This document shows, in pieces, positions 6,001 through 63,000 of a stretch of 64,000 nucleotides of DNA; the stretch's first letter is position 1, and the number at the start of each line of letters is the position of its first letter. The notes under the pieces are model-generated. The model saw only the letters and a list, made by a program, of their open reading frames with translations. It had not been told where the DNA came from and searched no databases. This stretch comes from Candidatus Omnitrophota bacterium (lineage in GTDB: Bacteria; Omnitrophota; Gorgyraeia; Gygaellales; Profunditerraquicolaceae). The stretch is from contig JAUSED010000005.1 of the NCBI GenBank assembly GCA_030650425.1, positions 78,932 to 142,931 on the forward strand. The letters are read 5' to 3'. The position numbers and the translations under genes were made by a program.

Positions 6001-9000
6001 ATAAACTGCATAGTTTAAAGACTCCCCGTTATTCCCGCGCTGCTGAGAGGCAGAAAGAGAGCCTTTTACAGGCTATTGATTTTATCCAGAAATCTCGGCT
6101 GCCCAAAGAGGTTCCGGGGATTGTCAAATATTTTATTGATGAAATTTGCCGTTTATATTTACCTGAAATTGTAAAAAGCCGCGAAGAGGGGACGCTTAAA
6201 GGAGGCTTGCCGCAACAATCTTCCCAGCTTGATCCGGAAAAATTTTTTAGCTCACCGGTGGGTCCCGAGGCCGACTGGCGGCGGGCCAATTTCTTACCCG
6301 AGACCTCACTGCTCTTTACTATCTTTTCACCTCAGGAGCAAAAGATGGCTCTTAAAAGATACAGAATCTTAACTCGGAATATGGCAGGGATTATCCCGGA
6401 GCATAACACGCCAGAAGCAGAAGAAACCATCAAGGCAATTTATCTCTACGGAGGGTATCTGTACCATGGTATCCCGACAGACATGGATATTGCGTTTATC
6501 AAATCGGCGAAGATTTCGGTTGAGAAGGACGCAGGGATTTCTATGCTTGCCCAGCGCCTCGCTGACACGGTAAGGTTCCGCGGAAAGGGGTCAGGTTCTG
6601 TTGAAGCGGAGAGGCGGTTGGGTATGACAGTGAATACCCGCCTTTATCTAACGGCAGCGGAATTATGGAATAGCGGCTATCAACTCAGGATGCCGTCTGG
6701 TCGGGAAATCTTTAATTTTGTCAGTCAATTGGTCTGGCCGACAGGGGGGAAGGGAAGTTATCTCGCGCAGGCGATCCTGGCTTTGAACCTATTGGATAAT
6801 ACGGTCTTGACCCGGCTAGGGCTGACTATGGCCGATGTCAGGTTAGTTTACTATGCCAGGGCCTTTTATCTTACTCAGAACCCGCCAATCGATATCCAAC
6901 AGGTTATGGATATCAATAAAAATGTTTGGTCACTGGTTAAAAAGATGAAATGCCAGTTTGCCAGTTCAGTCGTAAATAGAGGGGGTAGAAAGGATGCCTA
7001 TGGTTGTTTAATGCGAACTTTAGTTTCTCAACAACATAAACCTGGCTCCAGTTCACCGGTGGAGGTTTCATCTTCAATCGAAAGCTATGCCGTTGTGACG
7101 GATACTGAAAATAATTCTATAGTTTTTCTTCCCATAGTAAACGGCCCATATATTAGAAACTATCTTGGCACAAAAATAATTAGGGGATTGATTAAAAGTT
7201 TAGACCAATGGATAGGTTTTAAGATAGGCGGCAGGGAAGTACCCACTAATGAAGAAGAGGTTCTGCGTTGCCAGAAGATTTTAACACGATTCGTAATGCG
7301 TCGGTCAATGGGGGAAATTCCCATCGTGTCATTGCGAGCGAACGAAGTGAGCGAAGCAATCTCGACGAGATTGCTTCGTCGCTGCGCTCCTCGCAATGAC
7401 AAATTCCCTGGATCGCCCCCGTTCACTGACGCATTACCACGATTCATCTCCGAGGAAGGGGGAGAGGCAGTTGATTTGTCGACTAAGGGATTTGAAGTAC
7501 ATCTAGTCTTATCTTCGCAAGAAACTTCGAAAAAACCTAAACATCTATCCATAGAGGCATTTTTGGCAGTTAACCAGGAAGGCTATGTTGTGCTTGAGAT
7601 AGCCCCTTGGAATAAAGCAGGCCGTTATTTAGGCTTGGCCCATCAATTAAGGGTTTTCTTTTTTCAAAACATTTTATTGTGGAAATATGACCTTGGGCTT
7701 AAGGCTGTTTATAATATGATATTTACTGTGAGTTATAAGACTATTAACGGGTTAAAAAGAAGCGTATTTTTACCAAAAGACCTGCCAGACTTTATAGCTT
7801 ACGATCTTCCTCCTGTAAATATAGCGGTGATAGAGTCCTACCTTCTATCGTATCTTGTCAAGGAAACAGAGAGGGTGGCAGAGTTAGTGGTGAGAGACGA
7901 TTTAACGAAGAATAAAAAACGTTCTGGCTCGCCTATCGCGGCCTCATCGGTTGAGTCATCCGTTAACGGAACAGAGGAAACGGCAAGCGCGGAACTAAGA
8001 TCTATACTTCATAGCCTCAAGAATAAGTTTCTTTCGCTTGTATATTTTTCTGGCCTTTTGTTGCGTAAGGCTGGCCCCTTAAGAATCGAAGAGGATATAC
8101 CATTATTGAGACTGTTGCGAAATGTCATTTTTCGTCATCCTGAGCGAAGCGAAGGATCTCGTTATCGACGAGATTCTTCGGCCTTCGGCCTCAGAATGAC
8201 GCAAAGTCGGGCATTTCGCAACAGTCCCTTATTGCAAGCAAACAGCCCAATTTCATCCCCAATGGAGTTTCATATCGAATGGGCAGGGGCGCTTGACCAG
8301 AATCCGAAAGGGATTATCAGCGCGGCGGGCGAAAGATTTAAAATCTATTTTAATCTCGTATTTAGCGAATATTTCACCGCAGAAGAAGTACTGGCATTTT
8401 TTCCCGACCGGCTCAAAATAGAGATGAAGCCAAATTTTTACTACAAAGGAATAATCCTAGTGGATAAAATTCAGGTAGTAAATATTTATTCACCTGCCGG
8501 GGAATGGGCAAGGACTAACGACAGAGAGCAGCCAATCTATCCGGAGACCAAAAGCAAGGCCTTTAGGTTAGAGGTGCCATTTTATACCCATGATTCTTTA
8601 ATATTTGATAACGATATACACTGGGAAAAAAGGGAACTTTTGCTTTTTTCTCTGCTGATTAAATTTAAGCATCAGGGAGAAGAGAAGGTTATTGAACTTG
8701 AAGGGTATGGAAAAAGCGGGGCCGGCATAGTTGGCCTCCATTTACCTGCTGTAGGTTATTTTAGCGAAAGACTTAAGCAAAGGCTAGAGAATCTATACAG
8801 CGATTATTTAGGAGGCATTGAAAAAGATAACGCGATAACTCTCTTAGTGTATTATACGGAGGTATTAAAGATAGAATATGCTAAAGAATTACTGCTAAGG
8901 ATTGCCAAGGATAGCAACCATTTAATCAGAAAGGATTTGGCTGTAAGCTTAAGGCAGCTGTTAGCGCATGATATTCACGCAGAGATTTTAAATGAATTAA

Positions 9001-12000
9001 TCAATGACGCCGACAGAGAAGTCAGGGAAGAGGCGCTAGTTACCTATTGTGTATATGCTTTGCGCGGTAAATTTTCTAGTGATTTACAAGATCTAAATAA
9101 CTTACCAATGCGTATCTTTTTTTATGCGAAGAGCCTTTTTGTAAAAGAGGGAGAGAGAAAAGAATTAGTAACGATATTAAAACAACCAACAGATACCGTA
9201 AGCTTTCTTGCTGGTTTTTCCGGAGAAGACTTGCGCGGAGGAATTTACAGTAAGGAGCAAGCAGAAGGCTATATTCGTTTATTTAGAGAAGCGGTTGTTT
9301 CTGAAGTAAAGGGATTTTTAAGCACAATAGAAGCAAGAGTAAGAAGGGTAAGCCTTGATGGAAGCAAGGTTGAAGAGGATAAGAAAACAATTATCAGCCT
9401 GATATCGGAAATGAGACGGGAATTAGAAAGGCGGCAGGCTGGCAGCCCGATTTTCGTAGTTCGAGGCCTATCTTTGCGGCAGTATAACCCCGGTTTCAGA
9501 TTGCTGTATTTATCTGGGCATATTTCCAGTTCGCCGATAACCTCCAGAAGCAACAACATAGCAGGAGCGCCTTTTTCTAAGTCATTTTTACAATGGCTAA
9601 GTGACTCAGGTATAGGATTAAGGAGTCCTCCGTCCAAGCTGCTTGCGGCTTTTGTCTTCCTTGCATATCTAGCCGCATCTATTTTCTCGCCAATAGTAAG
9701 CAGAGCAGATTCAGTTCAAACGCCCTCAGGTGGAAAGGCGCCTCAGGAAATTCCGCAGGAAAAACCAAAGCAAGAAGGACAGGCGTCCTTGAAAGCTCCG
9801 GCAAAGGCCGCTAATGATTTAGCGCAAGTAAAATTAAGCGAGGCAATAACTGCTCTCAAGAATAAAAAGAGGCCAGAGGCCGAAGGATTCCTTAATTCTG
9901 CGAAAGAATATTTGTTCGAGGTTAAAGCCGGTAAAATTGTGGCTAAAATTGAAGATCATAAAACTTTGGTAGAATTTGCGGAGCTCTCAGAGCGCCTTCG
10001 CAGGTTCGATGATGCTATTTTGGCTTATAACGCGGCCGCGGGAGTTGTTGAAAAAAAGGATCCGGATTTAGCAGAATATTACAGGTCAATAGCTTCGTCT
10101 CTCGAACCGTTTAAAAAAGGAGAAACGTCCCGTCAGCCGCCTGCGCCTCTATCTCCTGAAGCTTCTAAGAAAGCGGTAACGTTAAGCCCGGAGGAGCAGG
10201 AAAAGCTAAAAAAGACCACCAGGGCCGCATTAGATAAAATCGAAAGATCTTTAGGGACACCTAAAGGTATCCCGATAACGGATGAGCAAAGAAAGGCGGC
10301 GAAGAAGAGTCTTGATGAGGCAAAGGAAAAGTTAGATAAATCACGGATAACTGACTTTGATCTTTATGCTGAAATCGGCAGAATATATAATTTATTAGAC
10401 TTCTATAAAGAGGCAGGAGAAGCAAACGCGAAAGCGCGGGAATCCGTCGCATCAGACGCAGAGAAAGGATTTATTAAAGACCAGATTCAGAAGAACGAGA
10501 TGGACGAGATGAACGCGCCAATAAAGCGCCCCGGCAGCTCGCCGTTAGGCAGTTCCAGCTCAAAAACCTCAAGCCCTATGGAAGATTATGGAAGATTTTT
10601 GGCTTTGGCGGAAGAAATTAGCAAAGTGATTAAAGCTGCACAGGCCGCCATCTTTGATAAGAATAGAGAACAAGGAGTTTTTGAGCTTTATGCGCAAATA
10701 GAGCACGCCGCGAACTTATTTGAAAGTTTTAAACGAATCTTTCATTCTTTTAGAATCACACCTGAGCTTAAAGAGCATTATACGGAGATAATAGTTGCTT
10801 TAGCAATGAATTTCCCGTCGCGAATTGAGCCAGAGTCAAATCTTATCCGAGGAATGGATACAGGCCTTACCGCAGCTGCCGAAAAAGAATTGAGGGCTAT
10901 TTTATCATATAAAGAGGCTAAGCAGGTACTATGGCAAAAACTGCAGCCGTATATTATAGGTTTAGATGAAATTCCTGAGCCTAAACTCAGCTTAGGCCTG
11001 CCCATGGTGATTAAATCGTTTCATAACCTTGATGAAATAAGATATCTCCAGGAAATGGCTGGTAATTTCGAGCTTCAATTCTGTGTGGTTTCGCCTAAAA
11101 GGACGCCTTATCCTTTACTTATTTTTTCAAAAGAGCTTGGGGGTTGGGCTGAAATAAGGTTTGTGCCTTTTGCCTCTGCGGTGGCCCATACCCAAGCTTA
11201 CTTGATTCCTTTGGAAGCAAGTCAAGAAGACGAAAGAAAGGCAGGATTAGTCAACAGAGTTTATCGAATTCCTTTCCTTGTTTTAGGTTTTGGTTCCGGA
11301 AAAGATACTCATTTGGAAATCTCCTGGTTTACAAAAAATGCGCCTTGGTTTCATTACGAGCGGGAAAATCAGGAAGAAATAGTCCGGTTTTTACGCAAGG
11401 TTAATTTCCTGGAGACATCTTCTCCCCTTATTGATAATACCGGTGAGGAATGGACAGATAGAGAACTGGAAATCTGGCGATTGTGGGCAAAAGGCGTAGA
11501 TCGGGAAGCTATAGGCAAGGCATTAAATGAAGGTGAACGTTTTATAAAAAGGGTCATTTCAAAGATTATAACAAAATTTAATATTTCAAAAAGAGGTCAA
11601 ATAGCGCACTTTATCTCTATTAAGGAGGCAAAAAAGTACGGCATAGATTTAGGTATTAGCTTAAAGGAGGCCTTAGATCAGGATTATCTTGCGGCAATTA
11701 AGCTTTATCTGAAAAATGAGCCTCCAATGGATATTGACAAAAAATTCAACAAAAAAGATTCGTGGTTTTTAAAGGCGGTCTTTCCTGTTATGCTTATTTT
11801 AACCAATATGGATATGGAACCTTTAGATGATAAATTCTCTGATAGTTTCCGCCAACGGATTACGGATGTTTTAATTGAGCAAGGAATTTTGGAAAAAGGA
11901 TTTACGATTAAGCCTAAGGAAGTTTTGAGTGAACGGGAGAAAAAGATTTTGTGGTTGTTTATAGCCGGTTACAATCCAAAAGCCATTGCTTTGACGCTTT

Positions 12001-21000: not shown

Positions 21001-24000
21001 AAGCAAAAGAAAATGGCAGAAACAGGGTAGAGGCCTTCGCGGCCTCTTTAGTTAGTTCGCCTATTGAAGGCTCGCGCGCGGATTTTTATCGCCCTAAGGC
21101 GGACAATCATTTGCCTTCTATCCCCAAGGAGAGGGAAGAGGCAATTAGGGGAGAGTTAAAGGGAAATCAGCCGATAACTAATATTCAAAGGCAATTTGTT
21201 ATTGATGTATTGAATGAGGCTCAAGGTTTAGCGAGAGAAGACGTAGAAATTGTACGTTCATTGCGGGGAATAGCTTCTATAGAAATACGCGCAGGGCCTA
21301 TGCCTAACCTTTACGGAGCTATTTATGATAATATCTTATATTTAGACACACTATTTTTCCAATCCCGCCAACGAATAGATTTTCTTCTTACCTTAATTTA
21401 TCTAGCCGGAGCCAGGCTTGGCAGAAAACGCAGGCATAATGAAGCATTTGCCAAGAAATACGCGGCAAATATTCCCAATAATAACCAAACTATAGTTAGC
21501 AGGCCGGAGTTATTCTTAAAACCCGAAGAAGTAATCGTATATTTTAAGCGCGAAGGAGAGAACATTGATAAAATCCAAAAGAACTCTATCTGGCTGCAGT
21601 TACCGGATGAATTTAAGGATTTTACAGTATTGACCCCGGCTCAAGCCCTAACTGAAGGGCTTATTATATTAACGAATAATCCGCACCTAAAGGAGCGCCT
21701 GCAAAATAATATAATATCGCAGCCAGAACGCTATAGAGTGTCAATAGAAGGAAAAGTCAGCGAGGAGGATTTACGTTCTATGTTATCAGGCCGGTATGTA
21801 AAAGCGGCAAGAGGAGAGAATAGCGGAGCTAATAATACTGTGCATATGTGGAAGGTAAAGCCGGATAGCCTAGAGGTAAAAGAACGAAATAAGGATAACA
21901 CAATTTTGGAGATTTATTTTTCCAGAAGAGGGGAACGGGAGATTTTGGTATTATTCAAGAATTTCGGTTATTCAGTGAAAAACATAACCCGGACACAAAT
22001 AGGCCTAATTAGCCCGCAGGATTTGAAACCCGGCAGTTATCGCAGGCTAAAATGGAATGAAATACCGGCCATAGCCGGGCTTTATTTCAAAGATACTTTG
22101 TATGAGCGAAACTTAGCGGTAAAAGAGCAAAAATATGCCCTTGAAGAAACGCAGGATTATGAGGTTATCGACTTCTTATTGAATGATAAAAATGTGATAA
22201 GTGATGTTTTCCAGAATATTTTTATGAGGTTTGATTTGGCCGCCGATAACGGAGAGAGAGAAGATCTTTATTACATCAGGGAGGGGGGGTTTAAAAGAGT
22301 TTACAAAATAGTCTTAAGGTCGAAAAATAACATAGAAAGATTCGCGTTTTTCGTTAAGGTTGTTAAGGCTGATGTTGAAATGACCGATTCTGGTTATCGT
22401 TATGACGCGGAGTATGCTAAAAGGCTTGTTGAGACCGCGCGCTTAGCGCGGCCATTAGCGCGGCAGAAGGAGCTTGATTCCTATCCTCCCGTAGGCGGTT
22501 ATTATTGCGTAAAGGGTAAAAACGGAGAAACAAGGATTATTTTTACAGAGGGCATTATCCCCGCGGCAAACGCGCATTTAACCCCGGATAAGAGAAACCA
22601 GATACTGATCAGGACGTATCTTTTATACTATTATATTTTTGGGAAACAAATATTTTTTGCGGATTCTAAACCGGAGAATGTTATTATCCATCATAAATCC
22701 CAGATAGGATATAGAGGCACGCTTATCGATATGGATAATATTATCTTTAGCGAAATATCCCCAGCCCATCTTGTCCATAACCTGCTTTTATACGGTTTCA
22801 AAGCAAGCGACATTATAGAAGCCTTGATTAAATTCTTGGGCAATCAAGAAGCCCACGATTTCTTAAGGTCAATTATGTTTTTAGCCGCGCAGCCGCACAG
22901 CCAGATTATGATTCCTATAGTAGAAGCGTTTAAAGGTTATAGAGATAGAGGGATATTCCAAAAGGAGGTCAGCGGAAGTTTTAAGATTAAGCAGCCTATA
23001 AAAATAGCTATCAATGATAAAGAAGTGTTAGTACCGGAACGGACAACCCTTCTTGAGATTTTAAATGATTGCTACGTGGATATTAATACGATGGATGTTG
23101 AATTAAATGGAAATCTGCTATCGCTGGGCCCCGGGGCCTTATTGACAAGCGAAAAAAGGTCAAAATATAAAAATACTATTCTAATGAGTAACGACAAAAT
23201 AAAATTCTACAGGGAATCAAGAGTTCACAAGGCTATGCCTAATGAGGTTCCTAAATTTTACACCCCTGCTTTAAAAATAAAATTAAAGCTGCTTAAGGAA
23301 ATGGGGTTTGATGGGCAATTAAAGGCCATGTCAAAAGAATTAATTAAGTTTAATTCCGCGGTTATAGATAAGGCCGTTGTAACGCCGGAGGTTAAGTCTT
23401 TTAGGCTCGTCAGCGGTTCATTATTAAATAACTTTATGAGGTATCTCAAAAAACACAGAAACCATCCTTTTGAAGGCTTTAAGCCGGATATAATGCTGAA
23501 GAGGTTTGACGATATAGATTTTGAAAGGCCGCAAGAAAGAGACAAAATGAGGCCGGTGCTTCAAAAATTACTGGCAGGCTTAAAGGATTCAAATAATACA
23601 TTTGATAGGATTTTTAAAATGTCAGCCGAGGAAGCGCGCGGCAGCAGCCCGGCCATCCAGGGCTCAAAACAACAGGTTAAGATTAAGAAGACAAAAGAAT
23701 TTGAGGAAATTTTGAAAGGAATTGTTTCAAGCCCGATTGCTAAAGAAGAGTATTTAGCTGTAGTGGTTGAGAGGGGATTTTTTGTGCCGGAAGGAATAGA
23801 AATGATAGAAAAAAGCCTTGATAAAGGCATATTGCACCCCGGAACGAAGGTGAGTCCGCAAGATTTCGCTGAATTTATGGAAAATTTTCATCTTAATTCA
23901 GGATTAACCGCGGGCTTGAATAAAATCTCTCGGCTAGCCTATTGGCCAATAAGCGAGAGTAAAAAGATATTTTATTTACCCAAAGAGTTATGGATGCGGA

Positions 24001-39000: not shown

Positions 39001-42000
39001 GAGTTATATTGGTAGCTATAGCTTATCTTTTTTCATTTATATATCGATTTTTCTATTTCTTTCTCAGAGATGCTCCAAGGCCGAATCTTGTTGAGCAGGC
39101 TAAGTCAAGAAGAAACAGCAAGAGACAAGATAAAGGAAAATTTTCAAGCTCTCTGGGAGCCATCGGAGCCTTTAGGGAACTTTTTAGCATAGATAATGAA
39201 GAGGTGCCTCTTGAGAAGATCCCAAGATTGATGAATAAGAAATGGGTAGATGAGATTGAAAAAGGCAACAGAATTATTGATGTGAAGACGAGGACTCTTG
39301 TTGTCCTAACAGTGCCATTTAATGAAATAGCCGACTTAAATATAGAGTTGAGTACTTTAGAGGTTGAAAGCTGCACAATGATTAGTTTCAGGGGTAGAGA
39401 TAGAGAAGGGAATATGGTTTTGGGGTTAGGCCATATTTTTGAGCCTGCGCGTAAACTGCAAGATTTTTCAGTTTTTGTTGTCCGGGCCCTATTGTCTATT
39501 CTCAAGGCTAGAGGCGTACATGAATTAGGCATGCTTATCCGTTATGACCCAATTTTCACCCAGCTCCCTAAAGAAATCATCAAAGGATGCAAGCATTTAT
39601 TCAAGAGGCCGGCTATAATTTTATCGAGAGAGAACAACTTAGTGGAAGATGTTATCGTTACTCCAAGAGGGGTAACGCGGGCCTTATACCAATATATAGT
39701 ATATGAAAGTGCCGGCCGTGGTTTTATTAGTCGAGAAAAAGTTGTAACTTTGTTTTACAATTGGGGTACCTTTAACACTGCCGCTTCGCCTATGCATACC
39801 CCGGATGAGGATAATAAACGAATATTTATTGAAGTAAATAACTTATTTAAGCAGGGCCGATTTAGAGAGGCCGTGGGCAAGTTGAGAGAGTTATTAAGTT
39901 ATCCTCTCGTTAATTTGGACAGGGCAAAGGCTTTGCATATGCTGGGAAGTGCCTTTATAGGATTGAAAAAGCCTTACACTGAAACAATGTTCTGTTTGGA
40001 TTCAGCCTTGCGCTTACTTAAAATTGATAACGTCCAGACACAAGAGTATTTGGATTTAGAGCTAGACATTAGTTTGGGGTTGGGACTTACGTATAATAAA
40101 TTAGGGCTTCCGGATAAAGCGCTTGGATGTTTCGAGAAGATAATAGAAGGATGTAACGACAAAGACATGCTTGATGCCGCGCGTCAAAGTATGCTGGAAG
40201 CTTATTTGATTAAGAAAGATTTTCCTGTTTTCTTTGATAAATTAGGCGATTATTTAAGCAGTAATTCAAATATAGATATAAGAGATATGACCTCCGTCTA
40301 TATCCTTGTGAATAGCTACCACCGTTATTTGGATGAGCATATCGATGAGGCAGGGATCCGGGGGGTTATTTTACTGGCAGAATTTTATTTCAGGCGCGCG
40401 GAAGAGTTATTAACCAAAGAAAAGATAAAGAACCATTCAGAATTTGACCTTTATCAGGCAGGAAGGGTTACCGCTGGTTTTGCTTTTATTTTCCTGCATC
40501 TTTACGCAAACAGCGATGTTCTGCGGGATAGGCACATCGCGTATTATTATAGCGGCAGATGCCTGCTGCATATAGCATGGTTTAAGGAATATTATTTAGC
40601 CAATGTGAATATAATTTTTTCCGCAGAAGGCCTAGAGTTAAATTTGGAGAATATGAAAGAAGTTTTGTCATTGGCAAGCGATTATCTGCTGGATGCCATA
40701 TTGATTGCGGAAAACGATGCTAAAGGCTCCGACGTAAGCTTTGTGAAAAAGGTAAAGGCTACCTTTTACGCGATATCTAATAAATTGAACTCTTTCGGGA
40801 TTTCATCTAGCCCCTTAGATGACGATAATCATAAATTTGAAATATTGCCTATGTTTTTATTAGTATCGCAAGGCGGTTCCGCCGCCTCGCTGGTTTCGGA
40901 AGAAGGGGGAGTATTTATTTCTTATCCTTCATCGGTTGAAGAGAAAAATCAATCCGTTAGTTCATCCATCACTGCGGCAGAGATAGCTGGCATATTCCTT
41001 GAAAGAAGCTGGCTTTCTATTTTTCCAGCAGCTCTTTTCTGGGCAGGTTATTATTTGTTTAAACTTCGCAAGAACATTGAATCTCAAAAAACAAGTTTTA
41101 ATTATTTATCCGTAAATAGCCAAAAGCTCTTCGATTTCAGGAGATTAATCCCTCAAGATAAAAAGGAGGTAATTATCTTGGCATCAATAGCCCTGATAGG
41201 GCTTACCACTATTGTTTTTCCAAGCCTATGCAGGGAGATTATACAGCTTGGCCAAGTAGTTAATCATCATCATATCTGGAAACTTCTTAATTATATTGTT
41301 GGAACGACAGCTGTAATGCGGGCTATTATGGTAGGAAGCAGAACGTTTTTATTTTCCGGAATATATTTCTTTTCAATGATAATATTTTCAGCTTTATGCT
41401 CGGTCTTTATCTTAAATAATATAACCTTATACGCTTATGAGTGCATTTTTGGCAACTTTAAGGCCTTTTTAGTCTTTATGGGAGCATTTTTCATAAGCGA
41501 TATTGTTGCTATGTTCAATAGGTTGATTTATAAAAAGGAGACAATAGGAAAGAAGAATGGTAAGCATTCATTAGGCGATAAAATTAACAGTAACGAAGCA
41601 AGTCCTACTAAGGAAATAAATTCCGGGACCGGCGCAGCTCATAATGTTAAGATAGCTCCGTCTTCTACCCGAACCAAGGCCAGCCAAGAGTTCCTATTGA
41701 GATATCTCCAAGAAACGAAAGAAAAGATAAACCGAAAGGGCCAAGATTCTAGTTCGCCTTTAGAAAATAAAGTTAATTCAGTAAATAAAATGGATGGCTC
41801 TATTTTGCCAAAAGACAACCCCGCCGCCTCGCCGCTGGCGGAAGAAATTGCGGATTGTAAAGTTACGATGGCCGGCTCATCCAGCCCTATTGACAATCCT
41901 GAAGCCTGTAACATTAATGCCGCTGAGATTATGCATAGCTCTATCCTTATGTTTTTAATTGAAAACCCTTATAAAGAGGTTAATCGGGTAAAGTTAAGCA

Positions 42001-45000
42001 GAAAATTTAAGAAAGAACTGAATTGTTCATTCAATGGGGTAATTGAGGCTTTGGAAAGAGAGAGCCTGATAACTGTAAATGGATTTAAGATTAGCATGGA
42101 TTTAGAAAATATAAGGCAGTTTATTCTTTATATCCTCTCCTACTACCAACAGCCTCAAAGTAAGGTTCAGTTGATGGAATTAAGCAGGATAGGTGAGAAA
42201 GAACTGGATAGATGTTTAAAGGAATTGCGAAGCGAAGAAGAAATCTTCTATCATCACCCAGAAGGCTATATTCCGGCAAAGATTGACAGGCTTTTGGCTA
42301 TGTATATAAGCGATAAAGATATGATTGGCGCGTTGGAAAGGAAAATAGTATTTTTGAAGAATAATGGTTATAAACTCAATGTTTTTGCGCACGCGGCTCT
42401 TTACCTTTATTATTTAGAAACCGGAAGATATTCTAAAGCAAATATACAAGCTAAGATAGTTGGCAATCCAAAAATCATTTCTGCGCTGTTTGTTGATATG
42501 GCAGACATTTTTTATCACGCGAAGAAATACCGGCAACAAAAGGAATGCCTGGAAGAGGCATTTAGATTGTGGCTTTTAGAGAAAAGGTTAATAGAAGAAC
42601 AAGATTATTCTTCGGTTGGTTTGCGCATGATAAAAGCAGAGCGGCTTTCCATGGAGCATAAAAAGCGTATATTATTTTTCTTGGAGGAATTAGCAGTTGT
42701 AAGCGGGCAATTGTTAAATGATAAAACAGCCTATGATTTATACTCTCCTTTAATCAGGCATTTTGAGTCCAGCAGTCCGTTGGGAGAAAATGACGAAAAA
42801 AAGTCCGGCAATAATTTAGCCAAAAACGGTCTCTCCGCCTCGCCACTGGCGCCACAGGAGCGCCTTGCCATCCTTTTCAATGCTAATACAGGGCTTAAAA
42901 ATATTCTGGAGATTTATTTCCGCCTTACAATTAATATCGATTTAGAGGCAATGGGAAAGATGATATATAACTTTATAGTTATTGACTATGAGCCTAAAAA
43001 TGAAGAGTTCGATAAGATTGATGCTTTAAGCGATGAAGAGAAGATAGAGTTGCTTAAGGAAAGACTAGTAGATAAAAATACTATGCGGGGGATAATCTAC
43101 GAAAATGAATCCATTCCAATCTTAGAGCAAATGCTATTTATTGATGAGCCTAGTAATGTAGCATTCCGCGCAACGCGGCATATATGCGATAAATTTATTG
43201 CAGAATTTATAGAATACCAAGAATTTGAAGATTTCGCTAAAGAGGTTTTAGATAAAATGCCAGATTTTCGCAAGGAGAGAGTCTTTGAATGGGGAGTTGT
43301 TTATCTATTGCTTTGGGCTGCGAAAATAATATATGAAAGACAGCATCTTCCGCAAAAAAACTCCTCTTCCGCTCAAGGCGCCGCTTCGCCGGTGGAAAGC
43401 ATAGCTACGTTAGAGAGGATTCTTAACGAAGGGTTTAAGGGCCCGGCAGCTCAGTTAGAGGCCTTTGGCCCGCAAAGCGATGATTTTGGATTTTTCCACG
43501 AACAAGGCAGGGCCGCGATATTATTAAGCTTGCTTAAAGCTGCCTTTCCCCGGATGAAACAAGATTTAAATTATATCATTACAAGCAAATGCAATTTGCA
43601 GTGCGCTCCTTGCATCGCGCAGTTGATTATGCAGAAAAACTCCAATGAGGATTTTTCTGAAGAGGTATTTAAAAAGAATATCTTAGAATTAAAAGGTTTT
43701 GAGAATATTTGGTTTGTAGGAGGGGAGCCATCTTTGTATGGCAAAAAGCCAGATGAAAAGGTTAGCGAACGCTTTATCAGGCTGGTAAATTTTGCCGCGA
43801 GCTTAGTCAAGAATGTTTTTATTGATACCAATGGCACTTTTATTATTGGGCTTAGCGATGAAGAATTAGAAGTATTATTTTTACGCTTTAGGAGAAATGT
43901 AACCTTTGTGCTGTCTGTGGATGAGTTTCATGAAGAGCAAATAAGGAGAAGATATGGGGTAGAGTTGAAGGAGATGATTGATAGGTTTAAGTCGTTTAAA
44001 GACAAAGGAATCATTAGCCTAGAATATAATATCAGGCTTGCCGGGAAAGAATTTAGGCATATAGAACAAGGGAAAATTTTGAGGCATTTTGGATTAGAAG
44101 AAGAATACAGGAATTCGAGAGAAGGCCTTTTTATTAACCAGCTGCAGGCGCAGGGAGGCGCTTTCACAACGTCTGATGTAAAAGCTATCCCAATTAAACT
44201 TGCTAATTTCATAAGGCACCAAGAAGAGCCAGAAGCCTTATTTTTGTTTATAGCTCTTGACGGCAGGTTAGTTGTCAGCGACCACGCAACATTTATCCCG
44301 TTCGATATAGAAGAGTCAGCTTTAGGCAATGTCTTTGAAAAAGAGCTTTCAGCTGTACTGTTTGAATACATTCGGCAATTATTGCGTTATAGGCCTAAAG
44401 AATATGAGCAAGGCCTGAAGTTGCTTAAGGCAATATGGGAATACCCTGAAGGAGAAAAAGAAATTAAGCAGTTTCGCCGGAAATTCTATGAACTTTCGCG
44501 GATTATTGTAGGATCCGTTTATGAAAAAATAAACGCAAGGCCTAAAAAAAGCTTGGCAGAAAAAATGATTGAGGTAGTAAAAAAATCCCGCGGGACAACG
44601 ATATGGTCTGTTAATGAGAAGGAGCAGATAAAGGAATTTATTGAAAAATATGATGAATCTCTTATTTTGGAGTCTATTCCTTCTTTGGCAAGGGAATTCC
44701 TGGATTTTATGCTTACTTATCAAAAAATTCCAGTATCCCAACCTTTACTGCTGATTAAGGCTAACGGATTATTGGGCTTTGGTTATGGGGTTTCGCGTGT
44801 CAATGATGTTAAGTATTTATTATTTGAGCGTTTAGACCGAGTGATTAAGACTTCGTTAAACTGGCTTCACGATACATTCCCCTATAAAAGATGGGATGAC
44901 CTAATCTGGTTATTTTATTATTATGCGTATTCATATCTTAAGAATACTGATTCTAACGAGGCATGGATTAAGTACTTGCGTCTCTGTTTGGGGGAAGAAT

Positions 45001-48000
45001 TAAAGGAGTTGCAAGATAAATGCTACAAGGGCGATACTGATTTTGATGTATTGGTAAGGCAGATTTTGTCCCCTGACAGCGTTATTAAATGTATCCACAG
45101 GCTGGATTTAAGAGATACAAATAATCCCCGCGGGGTTCTTATAGAAGAGTTTAAGGGAAAATATAAAGATGCGGGGATCGAAAAGTTACTGGGCATTTGT
45201 ATACAAATTATTCGCGGAGATCCTAATTGGAATCAGGTAGGTTATGCCGCAGAGAATGTTATCCTTTTACTTGAAAGCCCGTATGTTTTAGGACGTTTGT
45301 TTAAGGAGGCAGACTACTCTTCTTTAAGGGATGTTTTGTTTAAAATGAATATCCGTAAAGTAGCAGACAGGGCATTTGAGATATTAAGAGAATATAGAGA
45401 GCCTCCTGATTATCGTGATAATATAGCATTTATAATCCAACAAATTGGCGGCAAAAGAGCCGCGCGCAAATTAGCGAATATTTTTAATGAACGGGATATG
45501 TCTTGGCAGGTGAAAATATTGGATATGGTAGGGACAATGGTAAATATTTCAGAAGCAAAAGACAAGAGAGATGAAAGCAAAATAGCTTTGCAATTATTCA
45601 AAAAGGCCGTAAGAAATTTTAACCCCGAAATAGTAAATGAGGCGGTTTGCGGTTTAAGGAATTTAGTCAGCGAACGTCCTCTTCCTGCTAAAGATGTAAG
45701 AGACGCGGTTAAACTGCTTACAAATCTTAGAGAAGATATATTTAAGTTTTGGGATAAGGATACGCTAAAAAATGAACCTGTTAGTCTTGCCTTGCTGTTT
45801 ATTGAGAAGATGGTTGCCCTTGTTAAAGATATAGGGAGAGAGGCAACGATCAAGCGGTTAGAAGAATTAGAATTCAACAGGTTTGTTTTAGAGGATATCC
45901 AGAAACTTTTAGAAACCCACAAGGATGAAGATATTGTAGTTTATCTGCCTGATGGGCGCGATTTTATCTGGGAAAGGGAAACATTAGTTACAAAGGATGG
46001 AGAATTATTGCAGTCCTTTCGCGCCTCCTCGCCGCTGAGCAATGTTAATCAACCCGCAAATGGCGTGAATAATACCGAGGAGTTTTTGGCAAAATATAAA
46101 TATGCGGACGTTTTTGAAGGCCGGCGTATTCGGTTTAGGGCTAAATTTCTGCAGAGGCATGTAGTGCCGGACAGTATTTCGCTTCACATTGGTAATGTAA
46201 CAGTCGCCTCGCCGATTTCGGGAGAAATAGAAAGATTTAAAGAAATCCCTTTATCCAGGCTCTCTGATAAATCAGAGATTAGGGTATTAGTTATCCCGGA
46301 TATACATTGTCAATATGCTAAATTTGAGGACTTGCTCGAAGAGGCAGGTTTTATTGATCCGGATAAGAATTGGATCGCGGGTAATAGGCAATTAATTCAG
46401 ATTGGCGATGTGATCAGCCGCGGCCCGGAAGAAGGGGCCAGAAAATCTTGGGAGCTGTTGGATAAATTACAAGAAGAGGCGCCCCAACGCAGCGGAAGGG
46501 TTACAAGATTATTGGGCAGCCATGAATTATTGCATCTTCTTAGGGTAGGAATCGTTATAAGGAAAGACCCTGTGTGGATAAAAAAGATTAAAGGCGGTAT
46601 CGAGGAGAACAAAATTTGCGCTGCCTGCCGGGTTAACGGAAAGATAGTTGTTCATGCCGGAGTTGTTCCCGAATTATCATTGGGTAAGAAGGTTAATGAA
46701 TTAGAGGAGGAATTTAATAGTTTGTTATTGGAAGCGCTCAAACGCGATTCGTTTAAACATCCTATTTTCGGAATGGGAGAATATTCTTTTGGTTTTCAGC
46801 CGTATCCGGGTATATTTCAGGCGGATTTTGATTTAACGCTAAAATTCCATGCCGATAAAGTTATTCCGCAAATAGTGGGGCATAGCCCGGATTTAAAGAA
46901 TAAATCTATTCGAAGGGAAGGCGACATAATCAATATAGATGTCGCAATGTATAGAGGCGGAAAAGACGCGTTGGCTATTTTGTCTCTCGATTCGTCTTAT
47001 ATATCCTCTTCCGCGGTAACATTTATGCCTTATCCTATACCGTCTAATACCTCTATAGGCAGGCTGGAATTATTTGAGGATTGCCTTATTAAAGGTTGCC
47101 TTTCAGGTAAATCCTCCGAAATAATGAAGTTTATTGACTTGGGGATAGGAATGATGATCAATAAAGAAGGTATCCCTTCGCCAGCTACGACTTTAGAGTT
47201 AGCCGAGAGAATGCCTGAAGCTAAGGTCTATGGCATAGATAAAATAATACCAAAGATAGCCATTAAAACGGATAACTATTGGGCAATCTTCGATCAAAAA
47301 GGAAGGCTAAGGGTGATGGAGAAAGATGAAGAAGAATATAGCGGGGGTTATAACTTAATAGATATATCAAACCCGGATGAAGAGGTTATAAGCGAAATTC
47401 AAGGAATATACAATAAAGCAAGGCGGATAAATCCAAGTAATACGCCTAAACGCCTTAAGATATCCTTTAACGAGGTTATATACCGTCCGTTTGAACTCTT
47501 AGATAAAAACTCAAAGATTATATTCAAAGAGGCAGAATTTAACGAGCTTGAAAACATTTTTGCGGGAGTTAAATTTGATACTGGCAGGATATTTAATGTA
47601 AATCCGCATTATCCAGCGGATGAAGCTATGGAAAACCTGTTAAACATAACTAAGATTTTGAGAGAAAACAGTTGGCTTGTTGAGGGAAGTGTTTTTAGCG
47701 GCGCTTTCCTGAATTTTGCCGTTTATGATCTTAAAAAAGGTTATTTGGGCTTAAAGAGTATGTGCATATCTGAAAAATATCTTAATTTATCCAAAGAGCC
47801 ATCTTTTAATTCTACCCTGCCATCAGCCTTAAAGTTAGAACAGGCGCGGCCATTCCTTAATAACCTTACAGAAATTTACCAACAGGCTCCCCGTCGGCAA
47901 TTGATAATAGAGGAATTTAAAAGAAGGGGTTATTCGATGGTCAGGCCCTGCGGGCTTAGGGAAAATATTATTAAGTTTGATTTTGACCACGAATTTAAAA

Positions 48001-54000: not shown

Positions 54001-57000
54001 AAAAAATTCAGCCGGTTATAGGTAAACGATTGGTTTCTCTGCACAGGTTCGCGCAGAAGATTCTTTTGATAACGCATAGCAGGCTTGGGCTTATTTTCTT
54101 TGCCGGAGGAATTGGCACGCTCGATATATTATCCGATGCTTTATGTTTGATTCAAAATAAAAAGATACAGGCAATGCCTATTGTATTAGTGAATAGAGAG
54201 TTTTGGCAGCCTTTGGTTAGCTGGCTGGAAACTATTTTGAAATCAGGGGCAATATCCAAGGAGGATATTGAATTAGTTAATCTTGTTAGTACAAATGAAG
54301 AGATAATGAAGATTATCGCCGCATCTTCGGTTTTAGGCGAGCAAGCGCGGGATTCGAGCGAATATCGTTTAAGTTCGCCTGTGAACGAATCCTGCGTAGG
54401 CCAACCCTTAGACAGACCCTCTCAAATTAGTAATGTAGACACTTTACACAACTCATCGCCTGTCAAGCAATTAGGAAAGAAAATGCTTCTGCGGTTAGAT
54501 ACCGATAAAAAGTATTCGAGCTCTCCGGCAATAATAGAAGAGATAGCCGCGGCAATTACAGATTCGCTCAAGCTGACTGATTACTCTGGTTCGCCGTTGT
54601 TCTCCTATACTTTCTGTTTCCCTGCCACAATACGTGGCGGAAGCTCGTCTATGTCCGTTTCACCTGTAACTTATGTAGCCTTGGTGGTTTTATATTCATC
54701 TACCTCGTTTTTGATAACAGAAGGAGCAGGATTATTAGTAAACCAGCTTTTTCTAATTCCGCAAATTATTTGCGCTCCGCCAATAGTAAAATATGCAACT
54801 AAGCCCGTTTCCTCGCCGGTAGGGGCTGTTGGCTTCAGCTCGCCGGTGGAAAAAACAGTTGGAGCGACGGTGGTGACGCGAGGCGCCGCCTCGCCGCTTG
54901 GTGAATGGTCAAGTGATAATCTTAGGCAGCAACTTAAGCAGATTGAAGGGAATGTTTTGAATTTGCTGAAGAAATATTCTTTGCCAGAGTTTACGGATAT
55001 TGTTTTACATCCTGTCGCGTATCGTTCTTTAATCACGTGGTTAAACGCAGTCATCAAAAGCCGTGAAGATATACAAGATTTCAAAAAAATGCTGCAGAGA
55101 ATGGAAAAAGACTTTCTGGGGAGTATTTCCGGATTTGTTGCTATAATTTCTCCTGAAGAAAGAAAATCTTTAGTAGAATCTTTAGAATCCTTTAAGCGGA
55201 AGGCAAACGATAAGTTAAATGGTTTTATTACTGAAGCAAGAGAGCTGTATGGAAGGTTTTTGAAGTTGACGCAGCGGGATTTAGAAAATCGTTTTCCGGG
55301 AGAAACTACTCTTATTCTCTTACGGATAATGAGGACAGAGCCTATTAACCGTGAGTGGAATAGGGTTAGGGAAAATGAACATTTCACTTTAGATCCGTAT
55401 CATGGCTATACAAAATTAGACTGGAGAGTGATTATTGTTGCGCAAGTGCCTTTCGGGAGAATCAAAACAACCCCATGGGTATTGGAATCAAGTAAGACTG
55501 AAGAAGAATTTATTGTTTCCGGAGGCCTTCTAAACGTTGTCCAAACCTTTGATAAAAAAGATAAATGGATTAAGTGGAGAGAAGCAAACAAGGATTATTT
55601 TTATGCCAAGCTAAACTCGGCTTCTTCGCCAATCCTAGAAAATAATCAAAGTCTTCTCGTAGCTGGACGAAGTCCTATCAAATTTATTGGCTTAAGCTTG
55701 CCTGTGGAGGGAAAGCTTAAAGAGGTTTTCCTCTATGATAAGCTAGAAGAGAAACTGGTGCCGGTAGAGGCCAAAATCCTTGATACTCAGGACCCTGAAT
55801 TCAACGGTTTTCAGGATGCTGTAAGGGAGTGGTTAGCCTATTCTAGGGATGGTTATGCTATTGATAAAGCTAAAGACCCTCTAACCGGAGAAATTATTAC
55901 TATTCCTCATATCCGTCCTCTTGCCAGCCAAATTATCCAGAATGGAATCACTACTAAAGAGCACTTTATCGTTTTTAAGACAGCCGAGCAGGGAATTATT
56001 GCCTTTGTTCGCCTAAAGTTAAGGCCGCGCAGTATCCTTGGTGCCGGGTTTATTGTTTCTCCGGTTATCCGGCAAGTTAAACGTTACGATACGGAAACTC
56101 TCTTAATGGCCGTGATTCAGTCAATCATCGAATTTAGCCTTCAACAATTGGGCAGGGTAAGGGTGTGGGCGGATCCAGCTAACCGAAAGATGCTGGATTA
56201 TATTTTGCTATTTGGGCCGATAAGAAGACAAGGAAAATTCCTGGTAACGGACGAGGCCGCGCGAAGAATTCTGTGGTACATCCGTAAAAAGATGGCAGAT
56301 TATACCGCAACTTTAGCTGAGCCGGAAGAGAAAAAGTTGGATGGTTCTATTTCCGGCGCCTCCTCGCCGCTGGATTTAACGGTTGGCTTAAGTATTATCA
56401 TCTCCTATGCCTTATTAGTTCCGGTATTTGATTTATACCTGCGTAGGACTATTCAGCGTAAGACCATAGAAGAATTTAAGAAATTCCCATATCCTGTTTG
56501 GATTATGACATTCGCTTTTCTATTATTAGCATGGAAATTCCCGCCGTTGCACAATATTATTTTTTACCTCACCGCATTTTGTCCCGGCATTTTCCTTTCT
56601 TTGATAACGACACTTTCTTTGGCGACTATTTTTAGCCACCGAAAGACCAAGAAAATCATTATACCTTATTATTTATTGCGGGAAGAAGTGAATTATATGT
56701 GGAGACTATATGTCGTTAATATGAAGATTATTGAAGCCGTTGATATCTTTTTCTCAGCTGTGGCAGTCGCCTTCTTTAGTTATTATACCCATGCAACAGC
56801 TTATTTCATACTAGTAATGCTTCTAAAAAGAGCCGGAGTTCTATATCTAGCCCGAGGGCTCACTAAGGAATTTTCTTTAGAGCTTGAAGAGAGATACGAT
56901 GGGGGCAGGGACTTTATAAAAAAGTTTATCACAACAGAGCAGTTATTAGGAACAGATATTGCGCTTAGAGCAAAGGGGGAGCATAAGATAAGCTATAATT

Positions 57001-60000: not shown

Positions 60001-63000
60001 TTATCCCTGAAATTATTTCTGAAGCTATTGCAGAAGAAGTTCAAAGAATGCCGGCTTGGGAACTTTTATCTGTTTTAGATCTCAAAAAGGCCAAGCTACT
60101 TTTTACTAAAAGCGGTCCTAGAGAGCTTACTGTCCACAAGATTAAAGTGCCAAAGCTTGTAAATAAGTATAAAGCGCCAGAGGGTTTAAGTATTCTGCCG
60201 TATGAACTTTTTGATACGACAGAATTTGAACTTTTATACAATAAAAAAGGATACCTTATCGCGATTTATCCGGTTCTCCCAAACGGATTCCTGATTAAAT
60301 CTGGCGAACGACTCCCTCACTATTTTGATTTTAGTGAATATTATTTTAAAATTCCGGAATTCGGTGATCCGAAAATGATTGAAAAATGGGATGCCTTCGT
60401 AAAGGATGTCGGCAGAGATCGGGAAGCAATACAGGCTTATGAGGATTTAATCGGGATAAAGGGTAAGCTTGAAAGGCGCCCGCGTTGGGTACCTTACATC
60501 TACGCAAATCTTGATTATCGGGATAATTTTCCATTTGCTCGGGCTTTTTACATTGAGATGTTTAGCCGTTTGATTAAAAAAGATGAAATCTCGAATAAAA
60601 TCTCTAGAGACATAATCCGGTCTATTCTTCCTGTTTTTCCGACTGTTTACCATCCGGGATCCCATTTATTGGATGATTGGAAATACATTTTAGCTGTTAC
60701 CAGGCGTCTTGATATCCAAAAAGACCATGATATTTTGGTTGTTGGCCCGGGGAATGGCCTTGACACTTGGTTTGTTTCTCGGCAAACAAGGCGGAAAATT
60801 TATGTTGCGGGAATTAATCCTTTGGAAGTTGCCAATACCAGGGCTGTCGCAAAAATTGCCGGGTTTAAGATAGAAGCCAGGATTTACGACAACATTATTT
60901 CTAAAGACGGCGTGACTGTCTTTAATAAGAGATTTGATCGGATTATCTGGAATATGCCCACATATTATCCGGTTGCCCCTAGAATCCGGGAAAGCCTTGA
61001 AGAATGGGAAGATAATGATTACGACGGTATGATCTTAAGGCGTTTTGCCGGAGGCCTTCCATTACTTCTTAAACCAAATGGAATTGCTTTGGTTTGGAAT
61101 TCCGCTGCCGGAAAACTTTTAGATGAGGTTGAAGAAATCTTAAAAGCAAGAGGAGCGCTAGATGTGGCAGTCGAAAAATACCCGGGTATGACGTATTTAG
61201 CCAATATCGAAATGGGCACGGAAACCATTCCTACCGCGCTTTACTTTATCCGCAAGGGAAAAAATCCGGATGCAGCAAGCGCCTATTGTGTCAGTTCGCC
61301 GCTGAAAGAAATAGTTGGAGCGACGGTGGTGACGCGAGGCGCCGCCTCGCCGGTTTCGGGGGGAATATTCCTAACTATATTATGGCCTAAAGACGGTAAT
61401 ATCTTTAATGCGCTCAAAATCTCTGTCATTAGTAGCGATATTCCTAATCTTGCGGATTCTCATAAGAGCAAGATTGAGGGCATCGTTTGTCAACAAGCCG
61501 GATTGCTTAATGATCAATTGGGCAGTATCAAAGACACTTTCATTCAGCGGCCATATCTTGATGTTCAGTTTAGGGATACTATTTATGGCTATATGACACT
61601 TACTGAGTTCTTTGGTTATTTGCGGATGGGATTTAAGGTAGGAGACAGCTTTATGGGAGGATATATTGTAGATTTCTATGGTTTCGGCAATCATAAGACG
61701 ATGCAGAAGCTCAGCGACTACAATAACAGAAGTATAAGCAATTATTTCTTTTTGCTCGCAGCGCTGAAGAAAATTGGTGGCGTTATCATTGATGCCCAGA
61801 AAGTGGTATATAAATATATTGGAGTCAACGAAGATTTTTTTACCGGATTTGACTTTGGCGAGCATCTAATTATTCAAAGGGCTAAAGTTAGGGGATTCAG
61901 CAAGTATCTTAGCAATGCCGCGTTTAATATGTATGATAGCGCGAGTAACTTCAGTGGTGGTTTTAGGCAACTCAAACCTTATTTCTATCCTCTGATGTTC
62001 GGCAAGGGGAACCTTGGAGAGCGGGCGAATGACCCCTCGTTCATAAATTCCCAGTATAGTCTTAGTCATATTTTTTCTCCTTCTAAAAAAGTATACCACG
62101 CTCTTAACGGGGTTGTCAAGAATATTAGTCTTGCCGCCTCGCCGATAAGGATCTCTCCATTTCTCAGTGACATATTTAGAATGTTTCATATGTTTGAGGT
62201 AAATGAATCTATTTTAAGCGAAGACGGGAAAGAGGCGCAGCAGTGGGTTAAGAAAATCATTGGCACAATGCAGAGGCCCCCTGTCGGCCTTATTACAAAT
62301 AATAATGCAGAAAAGCTCATAGCGCTTATGCCTAATCCACGGAAAATATCTCTCGGTGGTTGGTTTGATCTTAGCAGCCTCAATTTTGGAAGCGATGATG
62401 AATTTGGCTTTGGTTGTTTAAGGCCTTGCCCGCATTGTTCAGAAGGGAATACAAGAGCGCGGGTAACAAATCGCACGCTGCCGCCTGCAATAAAGCTTAT
62501 TGAAGAGATGCGCAAGGAAGGCCAGCAAGATACGTTAAGAGGCCTGAAAACTTATCCCGGAAGGTTTCTGATCCAAGGGTGGAATAACACCGACCTTTTC
62601 TATTGGTGTGATCCTTTCTTTAGAGTCTATTTAGACGGCCTTATTGAATTTATCGCGCGTCATTACAAAGATAGAAAATTCCGCCTGCGGATAGCCACAA
62701 TCGGCCCAAACATAGATGACTGGCGCGCATTTATCGTAGCAAAGAGTATTGACAATCTGGTGCTTCAATATCCTGAGTTAAGAAATAATATATTTAGTCT
62801 ATCCTTGCATTTGGCCTTATTTAGCACCAGAGGGTTTGATTATAATACTATCTCTGCTTTGTATGAGCGCAAGATAAATCCACAGCGGCTGGCTAAGGTT
62901 ATAGATAACTATGTGGCCCGCTACGCAGCTATTATTGGCGTTCTCAAGAATACGCTAAGAACGGTCAAAGTATTTCTGTCAAATGAAAGCAGTGAATTTG

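Follow-up and report, generated by a model that had tools for sequence, protein, structure and literature searches.

Can a gene that stays open over more than 64,000 nucleotides (nt) harbor, antisense to its own codons, a complete operon with a promoter of its own? The question is raised by contig JAUSED010000005.1 of a Candidatus Omnitrophota bacterium, of which we analyzed a stretch of 64,000 nt (the window, to which all coordinates below refer). The plus strand of the window is a single giant open reading frame (ORF), while its minus strand carries a pair of genes of the toxin-antitoxin (TA) type, and a preliminary description had placed a canonical promoter and a Shine-Dalgarno (SD) sequence just upstream of this pair, within the sense codons of the giant gene. 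Judging from motif layout, conservation and substitution patterns, we consider it very likely that the segment 62070-62132 holds a native promoter of the σ70 type, together with a short leader and the ribosome-binding site, and that it belongs to a type II TA operon of two genes nested antisense, codon-aligned, in a giant ORF of more than 64 kb.

A promoter and a Shine-Dalgarno sequence precede the antisense gene pair

The minus strand of the promoter-to-start region reads cTTGACAaccccgttaagagcgtggTATACTtttttagAAGGAGaaaaaatATG. It carries a −35 hexamer TTGACA (62114-62119), the best promoter match in a scan of 55-64 kb, followed by an 18-nt spacer (62096-62113) whose last three bases, TGG (62096-62098), make an extended −10 TGn, and by a −10 hexamer that reads directly as TATACT (62090-62095). 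The SD sequence AAGGAG (62077-62082, with AGGAG at 62081-62077) lies 7 nt ahead of the antitoxin ATG (62069-62067), which is 20 nt from the −10. All of these minus-strand elements were thus found where the preliminary description had put them. The plus-strand frame, translating over this region as ...SPSKKVYHALNGVVKNISLAASP..., is stop-free over all 64,000 nt, which bears out the further claim that promoter and SD are contained in sense codons of the giant gene. At the usual σ70 spacing of 6-8 nt past the −10, transcription is predicted to start at 62082-62084, leaving a leader of ~13-15 nt. With TG before the −10, TTGACA-18-TATACT matches the σ70 consensus at 11 of 12 positions and is the only 11/12 match on the minus strand of the window; for an 11/12 promoter that has both an SD and a start codon within the next 60 nt, the expectation is 0.07 occurrences per window. 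By direct inspection, the reverse complements of the consensus −35, −10, SD and ATG hold no stop codon in any phase, and therefore a canonical promoter costs the open host frame nothing.

The first gene downstream (61866-62069, minus strand) encodes an AF2212-like antitoxin of 67 amino acids (Pfam PF01954, E=1.3e-8, 35.6 bits against a cut-off of 21.6), whose closest solved structure is 2NWT (AF_2212; E=6.6e-5) and whose homologs are 66-67 amino acids long, starting at the equivalent methionine. The second (61380-61865, minus strand) encodes a VapC-like PIN-domain toxin of 161 amino acids (PF01850, E=3.2e-15, 57.2 bits against a cut-off of 23.6), with a match that spans positions 1-118 of the 120-position model. 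The toxin ATG follows the antitoxin stop codon without a gap (TAG|ATG), an arrangement that suggests translational coupling. The acidic residues D14, E52, D128 and D149 are invariant across 23 homologs, and the PIN of the window keeps every residue that is invariant in the family. The PIN family profile matches the distant VapC structures 9z7o and 7by2.

A structured RNA or riboswitch in the leader was considered as well and rejected: the only Rfam candidate, freshwater-2, scored 23.6 bits against a gathering score of 49.9, its match relied on a U-run, AAGGAG and AUG and lacked the middle helix of the model, and it was absent from the six homologous loci scanned.

The promoter layout is conserved in all embedded loci with upstream DNA

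A search for relatives of the toxin yielded 44 database homologs of this PIN, and DNA was fetched for the close homologs and for 160 further genome and metagenome loci. Ten loci with an intact PIN at least ~52% identical to that of the window make up the embedded set (the window, L001, L002, L003/L004, L005-L008, L165 and L166). Upstream DNA was at hand for eight of them, and in all eight a promoter matching at 9-11 of 12 positions is present, with its −10 ending 20-41 nt before the ATG (20 nt in the window, 22-41 nt in the relatives). The window's TTGACA-18-TATACT corresponds to TTGACA-16-TATAGT in L001, TGGACA-17-TATACT in L005, TTGACA-17-TACACT in L006, TTGACT-17-TAGGAT in L007, TTGACT-17-TATACT in L008, TTGACG-17-TAAATT in L165 and TTGACG-17-TATTCT in L166. 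The −35 is thus TTGAC[A/T/G] in seven loci and TGGACA in the eighth, the −10 is TAnnnT throughout, and AGGAG, GAGGT or GGAGG stands at the equivalent place before the start in each of the eight.

The product of the per-locus background fractions over six loci is at most 5e-11; in pooled host sequence, 22 of 1,231 segments of 110 nt reach 10/12, five true sites included. The extended −10 TGn occurs in five of the eight promoters (P ~1e-5 to 5e-5), and the three promoters whose hexamers are weakest are all among these five. Neither the spacers nor the leaders are related in sequence from one locus to another. Furthermore, the distance from −35 to ATG is 0 or 2 modulo 3 depending on the locus, so that the −35 occurs in two phases of the host frame; because its phase varies, the −35 is conserved as DNA rather than as host codons. 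This pattern of conservation is the one expected of a working σ70-type promoter.

The preliminary description had also pointed to a palindromic antitoxin operator overlapping the −35/−10 region as something to look for. No conserved operator palindrome was found at the promoters of the eight loci, and the window promoter has just a repeat with 5-bp arms, equalled by 44% of shuffled sequences. In L008, a perfect 14-nt palindrome, CTTCTTCGAAGAAG (9753-9766), fills the promoter spacer; 3.6% of shuffles match it (p ~0.04, uncorrected for eight tests), and it is a possible candidate operator that the other loci lack.

The antisense frame is kept open across a single clade

All ten embedded loci have zero stops over the PIN gene in the codon-aligned antisense frame, and in nine of them this frame is stop-free over the whole locus fetched, up to 20,483 nt (L007 and L008). 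The named genomes among these loci are Omnitrophota, or metagenome-assembled genomes labelled Planctomycetales. The codons TTA, CTA and TCA, which read as stops on the opposite strand, make up none of the 225 leucine and serine codons in nine embedded PINs, as compared with 18.8% in free homologs; by our own arithmetic, the chance of 0/225 at 18.8% is ~0.81^225, roughly 1e-20. The ~147 more distant homologs (from archaea, Nitrospirota, Chloroflexota and others) have on average 5.2 such codons per gene, and the eight of them that have none are all GC-rich (at least 54% GC). L167, which is as similar as L165 and L166 and is free-standing, has 24 antisense stops.

Neighbour-joining groups the embedded PINs into a single clade, to the exclusion of all free homologs, in 99 of 100 bootstraps. 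Outside the cassette, the host ORFs of L005-L008 have no similarity to the giant protein of the window, and an orthologous giant gene without the cassette was not found among them. Because the embedded genes form a single clade while their hosts are dissimilar, the nested state must have arisen once and has since either stayed in unrelated giant ORFs or passed between them. Genuine sense-strand domains (ELFV dehydrogenase, σ70 region 2, UDPGP, DUF218) are encoded in the host ORFs of L005-L008. When 2-9793 of the L007 minus strand is translated in the sense frame of the giant ORF, the σ70 region-2 domain (PF04542, E=5e-16) appears near residues 2585-2625, and the ELFV dehydrogenase domain is found across the cassette from it; domains of a housekeeping type are thus fused into giant ORFs.

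The GC content of the cassette (0.37-0.39) is in line with that of its host, and each homolog follows the GC of its own host. A recent horizontal arrival of the cassette, which we considered, is unsupported given this match in the window and in the homologs.

Selection acts on the TA proteins, while the giant frame is kept open

When the ten embedded PIN genes were compared, the first, second and third codon positions of the TA frame had 0.34, 0.23 and 0.58 differences per site, which in giant-frame positions becomes 0.58, 0.23 and 0.34. The codon pairs that differ number 5,333; of these, 2,241 are synonymous when read in the TA frame, as compared with 477 when read in the giant frame. Mean amino-acid identity among the cassettes is higher in the TA frame (57%) than in the giant frame (33%). 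Such a pattern in the TA frame is a signature of purifying selection on the TA proteins. Scored by host codon usage, the TA frame of the cassette reaches 0.050, above all other antisense segments (mean −0.333, maximum −0.076), while the giant frame over the cassette scores 0.112, in the lowest 5% of sense segments.

The read-through of the cassette in the giant frame (61353-62132, plus strand) comprises 260 codons without a stop between two linkers that encode Ala-Ala-Ser-Pro (AASP). This shadow peptide belongs to no Pfam family; a word-indexed database search with it gave no match, and an exhaustive HMMER search found four short fragments as its sole relatives. Over the cassette, the giant frame is therefore conserved only as an open frame, and the TA products are conserved as proteins. 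That the giant frame is kept only open implies, in turn, that a stop there would be harmful and that ribosomes read through. Together, the sequence comparisons show an old arrangement of single origin, with conserved positions of promoter and SD and a host frame that is actively kept open. They also support the view, put forward in the preliminary description, that a promoter of its own speaks for a living TA module, since the layout is present in eight of eight loci, the catalytic residues are kept and substitutions follow the codon grid of the TA genes.

An exact look-up of the PIN of the window found no record in a collection of 153 billion gene positions, and P0001 was not on record either. 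For the clade members whose contigs are on record, these contigs are all ~1 kb or shorter, too short for a giant ORF to be called or to compete with the nested genes. Gene callers suppress the nested TA genes, and standard annotation is blind to them.

The giant ORF and its linkers

The giant ORF (3-64000, plus strand) has more than 21,332 codons and continues past both ends of the window. Its frame, the plus-strand frame from base 3, has 0 stops across 64,000 nt, compared with 802-2,021 in each of the other five. Its product is a mosaic in which [SAVG][AS]SP linkers, at 58 sites, connect enzyme modules and TPR modules, and the modules recognized by Pfam are Radical_SAM, GNAT, Lysine_decarbox/LOG, a PrmA-like methyltransferase, an M48 peptidase and TPR. 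This architecture matches that of published Omnitrophota giant proteins. No other nested genes were found in the window, in which no further ORF has a promoter and an SD together. Pfam gave no significant match for the three other minus-strand ORFs of at least 150 amino acids (39053-39532, 45410-45922 and 54671-55387), which are probably open by chance. On the plus strand, two σ70-like sites of 11/12 lie inside the giant ORF, TTGACA-18-TATAAA and TTGACA-16-TATAAG, at 23142-23171 and 42283-42310; these could be chance matches or internal sense promoters.

The cassette is flanked by two copies of a 12-mer encoding AASP, GCCGCCTCGCCG, on the plus strand. The left copy (61341-61352) forms the last 12 nt of a ~62-nt linker unit of the ordinary host type, and the right copy (62133-62144) follows at a distance of 792 nt (264 codons). 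The preliminary description had named it the junction 12-mer, but it is not confined to the junction: the window contains 9 exact copies, and the sequence recurs as an AASP linker elsewhere in the giant gene. At no more than 2 mismatches there are 30 plus-strand copies, and the plus-strand copies checked are in frame as Ala-Ala-Ser-Pro. We accordingly ruled out the 12-mer as a unique target-site duplication or insertion scar, it being a recurrent linker of the giant protein. Since it sits between two linkers, the cassette is placed like any other module, only reversed. At the cassette flanks no palindromic site was seen, only in-frame direct repeats of coding linker, in an inspection that included no dedicated attC model.

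The copies of GCCGCCTCGCCG span 24085-63485 (e.g. 38865, 41823, 50484, 53085, 54885, 59964, 61341, 62133 and 63474). The AASP linker is kept at the nucleotide level in a gene of 41% GC, despite 384 possible encodings of Ala-Ala-Ser-Pro, unlike the SSSP linkers, which have varied codons. The ~62-nt unit (SSP..VGATVVTRGAASP) is repeated at ~54835-54896 and 61291-61352, ~90% identical as aligned by eye, and the right junction repeats just its last 12 nt. Such nucleotide conservation suggests recent duplication, gene conversion, or a role of the linker at the level of DNA or RNA.

Direct repeats of host sequence also flank the cassette in L001 (12 nt), L007 (113 nt) and L008 (42 nt), and none do so in L006. 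Those of L007 and L008 are exclusive to the flanks, as judged within the 20-kb locus, and those of L005 occur elsewhere in the locus as well. The L007 repeats (9611-9727 and 10514-10630; 91% identity over 113 nt) encode a duplicated transmembrane-helix module, in frame at a spacing of 903 nt; the L008 repeats (9599-9640 and 10964-11005; 42 nt, 100% identity) include a GC hairpin and are in frame at a spacing of 1365 nt. Being present in several loci, not in all, and not always exclusive, the flanking repeats give no common route of entry into giant genes.

Further antisense cassettes in L005 and L001

The giant ORF of L005 contains a second, unrelated TA pair ~1 kb away, formed by DUF433 (E=3e-18) and DUF5615/PIN-like (E=2e-17) genes with their own TTGACA-17-TATGTT promoter and SD. 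Five consecutive antisense genes, in the order DUF433, DUF5615, a 111-amino-acid ORF without an assigned family (4890-5225), AF2212-like and PIN, thus occupy 4190-5924 inside a frame that is open for 15.9 kb. Although the DUF5615 gene occupies another antisense phase, no stop interrupts the host frame there. In L001, a further antisense cassette begins past the next ASSP linker (1000-1107), with TTGACC-17-TATTTT, AGGAG and an ATG. It encodes MHQRITINPL..., by eye like the N-terminus of DUF433, before it is ended by the contig end.

Weighing the alternatives

A number of observations weigh against a working promoter and operon of this kind. The hexamer pair alone is unremarkable: the window holds three 11/12 matches on both strands, compared with 1.6 ± 1.3 expected from simulated sequences of window-like composition, and the consensus used in the scan is of the E. 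coli type, which may not be Omnitrophota usage. Promoter activity is a prediction from sequence and conservation. The absence of a conserved operator palindrome leaves the autoregulation typical of type II TA systems unsupported, and no conserved terminator was found 3’ of the toxin gene; the 7-bp GC stem that follows the toxin in the window is a linker element and lacks a U-tract. The toxin scored below the NCBIfam VapC equivalog cut-offs (NF047959, 20.4 bits against 80; TIGR00305, 16.6 against 29.15) and matched none of the PADLOC defence models. Because of these sub-cut-off scores and the distance of the matching structures, we label it PIN-domain and VapC-like, not a curated VapC. As to the nested state, five of the ten embedded loci are contigs of ~1 kb in which the antisense frame is open and a giant gene is not demonstrable, and the L002 frame, with three stops near one contig end, stays open over 845 of 957 nt. 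Finally, L168, whose PIN is 75% identical to that of the window and which is the closest relative with DNA, is a truncated copy: on its contig (1499 nt, 1.9× coverage) the start codon, the antitoxin and the promoter are all missing, and the host frame is interrupted to either side of the PIN. Cassettes of the clade can thus decay, and in L168 this took the promoter, the antitoxin and the start of the toxin together. The same contig carries on its minus strand an 84-amino-acid ORF (409-663) that resembles, by eye, a DUF4258-type toxin.

One alternative is that the motifs are a chance match or the silent relic of a once-mobile cassette, with TA genes that are fossils or are not transcribed from this site. 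Chance matches do arise, as the number of 11/12 sites in the window illustrates, AT-rich sequence gives many 9/12 matches, and decay has a precedent in L168. Yet the layout was retained in eight of eight loci despite 58% third-position differences and unrelated spacers and leaders, TGn is enriched at P ~1e-5, and the PIN active site together with the TA-frame substitutions speaks for ongoing purifying selection; in L168 itself, the promoter disappeared along with the antitoxin and the toxin start. We therefore hold a chance match or relic to be highly improbable. Hardly probable at all, in our estimate, is that the giant frame is not truly translated across the cassette, so that the 64-kb gene is functionally split and its open frame incidental. 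The peptide encoded there has no family and almost no database relatives, evolves without amino-acid constraint and has a codon score in the lowest 5% of host segments, all of which would suit an untranslated stretch. The complete lack of TTA, CTA and TCA among 225 leucine and serine codons, however, is to be expected only where a giant-frame stop does harm, which means that ribosomes do pass through, and the opposite strand of the L005 DUF5615 gene is stop-free despite the different phase of that gene.

A promoter that mainly serves the giant gene, either by firing head-on or by making antisense RNA that throttles or segments the giant mRNA, with the TA genes as passengers or as a timing device, would explain other features of the locus. 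If the promoter is active, its geometry guarantees convergent transcription; with no terminator after the toxin, transcripts could run antisense into the preceding host module; and the nested state was kept through long divergence in host genes that are not orthologous. An antisense regulator, however, would not need an intact PIN and antitoxin, whereas selection is seen on TA amino acids and catalytic residues. One such cassette per 64-kb window is, moreover, little for a general control device, and no structured RNA was detected. We regard this account as quite improbable and favor a promoter that serves the nested TA operon.

Proposed function of the nested operon

If the nested operon is expressed as its layout predicts, RNA polymerase would start on the minus strand at ~62083 and transcribe the antitoxin and then the toxin, which would be translationally coupled at TAG|ATG. 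Because of the geometry of the promoter, this transcription would be convergent, meeting that of the giant gene head-on. To ribosomes translating the giant mRNA, the cassette would be a readable, unconstrained spacer of ~260 amino acids between two AASP linkers. The TA operon most likely serves as a self-expressed addiction or defence module, such that a deletion removing it along with some of the giant gene would set the toxin free. Collision or antisense RNA might also regulate the giant gene, as a side effect.

A wider proposal, which we put forward tentatively and consider rather doubtful, is that Omnitrophota giant genes are long-term hosts of one or more specialised lineages of self-promoted antisense TA operons, kept as genuine coding sequence on both strands and acting as addiction modules that punish deletions or gate expression head-on. 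Were it true, the arrangement would be the best-supported ancient antiparallel overlap in prokaryotes, and these operons a hidden class of genes suppressed by gene callers. Long antiparallel gene overlaps in prokaryotes are few and disputed. To the debate on overlapping genes the present loci contribute clear evidence for both strands, with selection on the proteins of one strand and a strict avoidance of stops in the other, across a clade reaching down to ~52% PIN identity, with an embedded partner that is a gene pair of known families with a conserved promoter. Giant ORFs can hide complete operons with their own promoters that annotation pipelines discard, and such operons offer a handle on how genes of more than 60 kb stay intact and expressed.

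Comparison with known systems

The order of antitoxin and toxin, the abutting stop and start codons, the acidic residues of the PIN, the AF2212-like antitoxin, and the σ70-type promoter and SD upstream are all shared with type II VapBC-like operons. Unlike in these, the whole operon and its promoter lie antisense inside an ORF that is open throughout, no operator palindrome was found and the toxin remains below the VapC equivalog cut-offs.

The giant genes of Omnitrophota have been described as ORFs of tens of thousands of codons with methyltransferase, GNAT, radical-SAM and TPR modules (West-Roberts et al. 2023, 10.1101/2023.11.21.568195; 2026 preprint, 10.64898/2026.06.07.730766), the preprint reporting 176 complete Omnitrophota genomes. 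The giant ORF of the window has modules of the same kinds, and the nearest cassette-bearing loci are in Omnitrophota genomes. A term search of these two reports found no antisense, nested or opposite-strand genes and no PIN or TA genes inside giant ORFs. A conserved, self-promoted TA operon nested antisense in a giant ORF thus appears to be undescribed, while the promoter itself is ordinary.

In the superintegron of Vibrio cholerae, self-promoted TA cassettes in sedentary chromosomal integrons penalise the loss of cassettes (Richard et al. 2024, PMC13108822). As there, where the cassettes occur in either orientation, a small self-promoted module sits in a long modular array, here between AASP linkers. 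The integron, however, is an array of promoterless genes, whereas the host here is a single ORF with in-frame coding linkers in place of attC hairpins; no integrase is evident in the window, which lies wholly within the giant ORF, and the stabilizing role is one that we infer.

The antisense overlapping genes established in bacteria, such as olg1 and olg2 of Pseudomonas aeruginosa (Kreitmeier et al. 2022, PMC8850804), are young ORFs of narrow taxonomic range that were overprinted on older genes. The nested operon resembles olg1 and olg2 in that hundreds of nucleotides are coding on both strands, with depletion of stops and a constraint specific to codon position. The genes embedded here are not young: they come from old, widespread families, PIN and AF2212-like, of which archaea and many phyla of bacteria have free-standing homologs. 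Whereas the host gene is the constrained partner of olg1 and olg2, it is the embedded genes that are constrained in the giant ORF, its frame being merely kept open, and in contrast to overprinting, their nested state would have originated by insertion and read-through.

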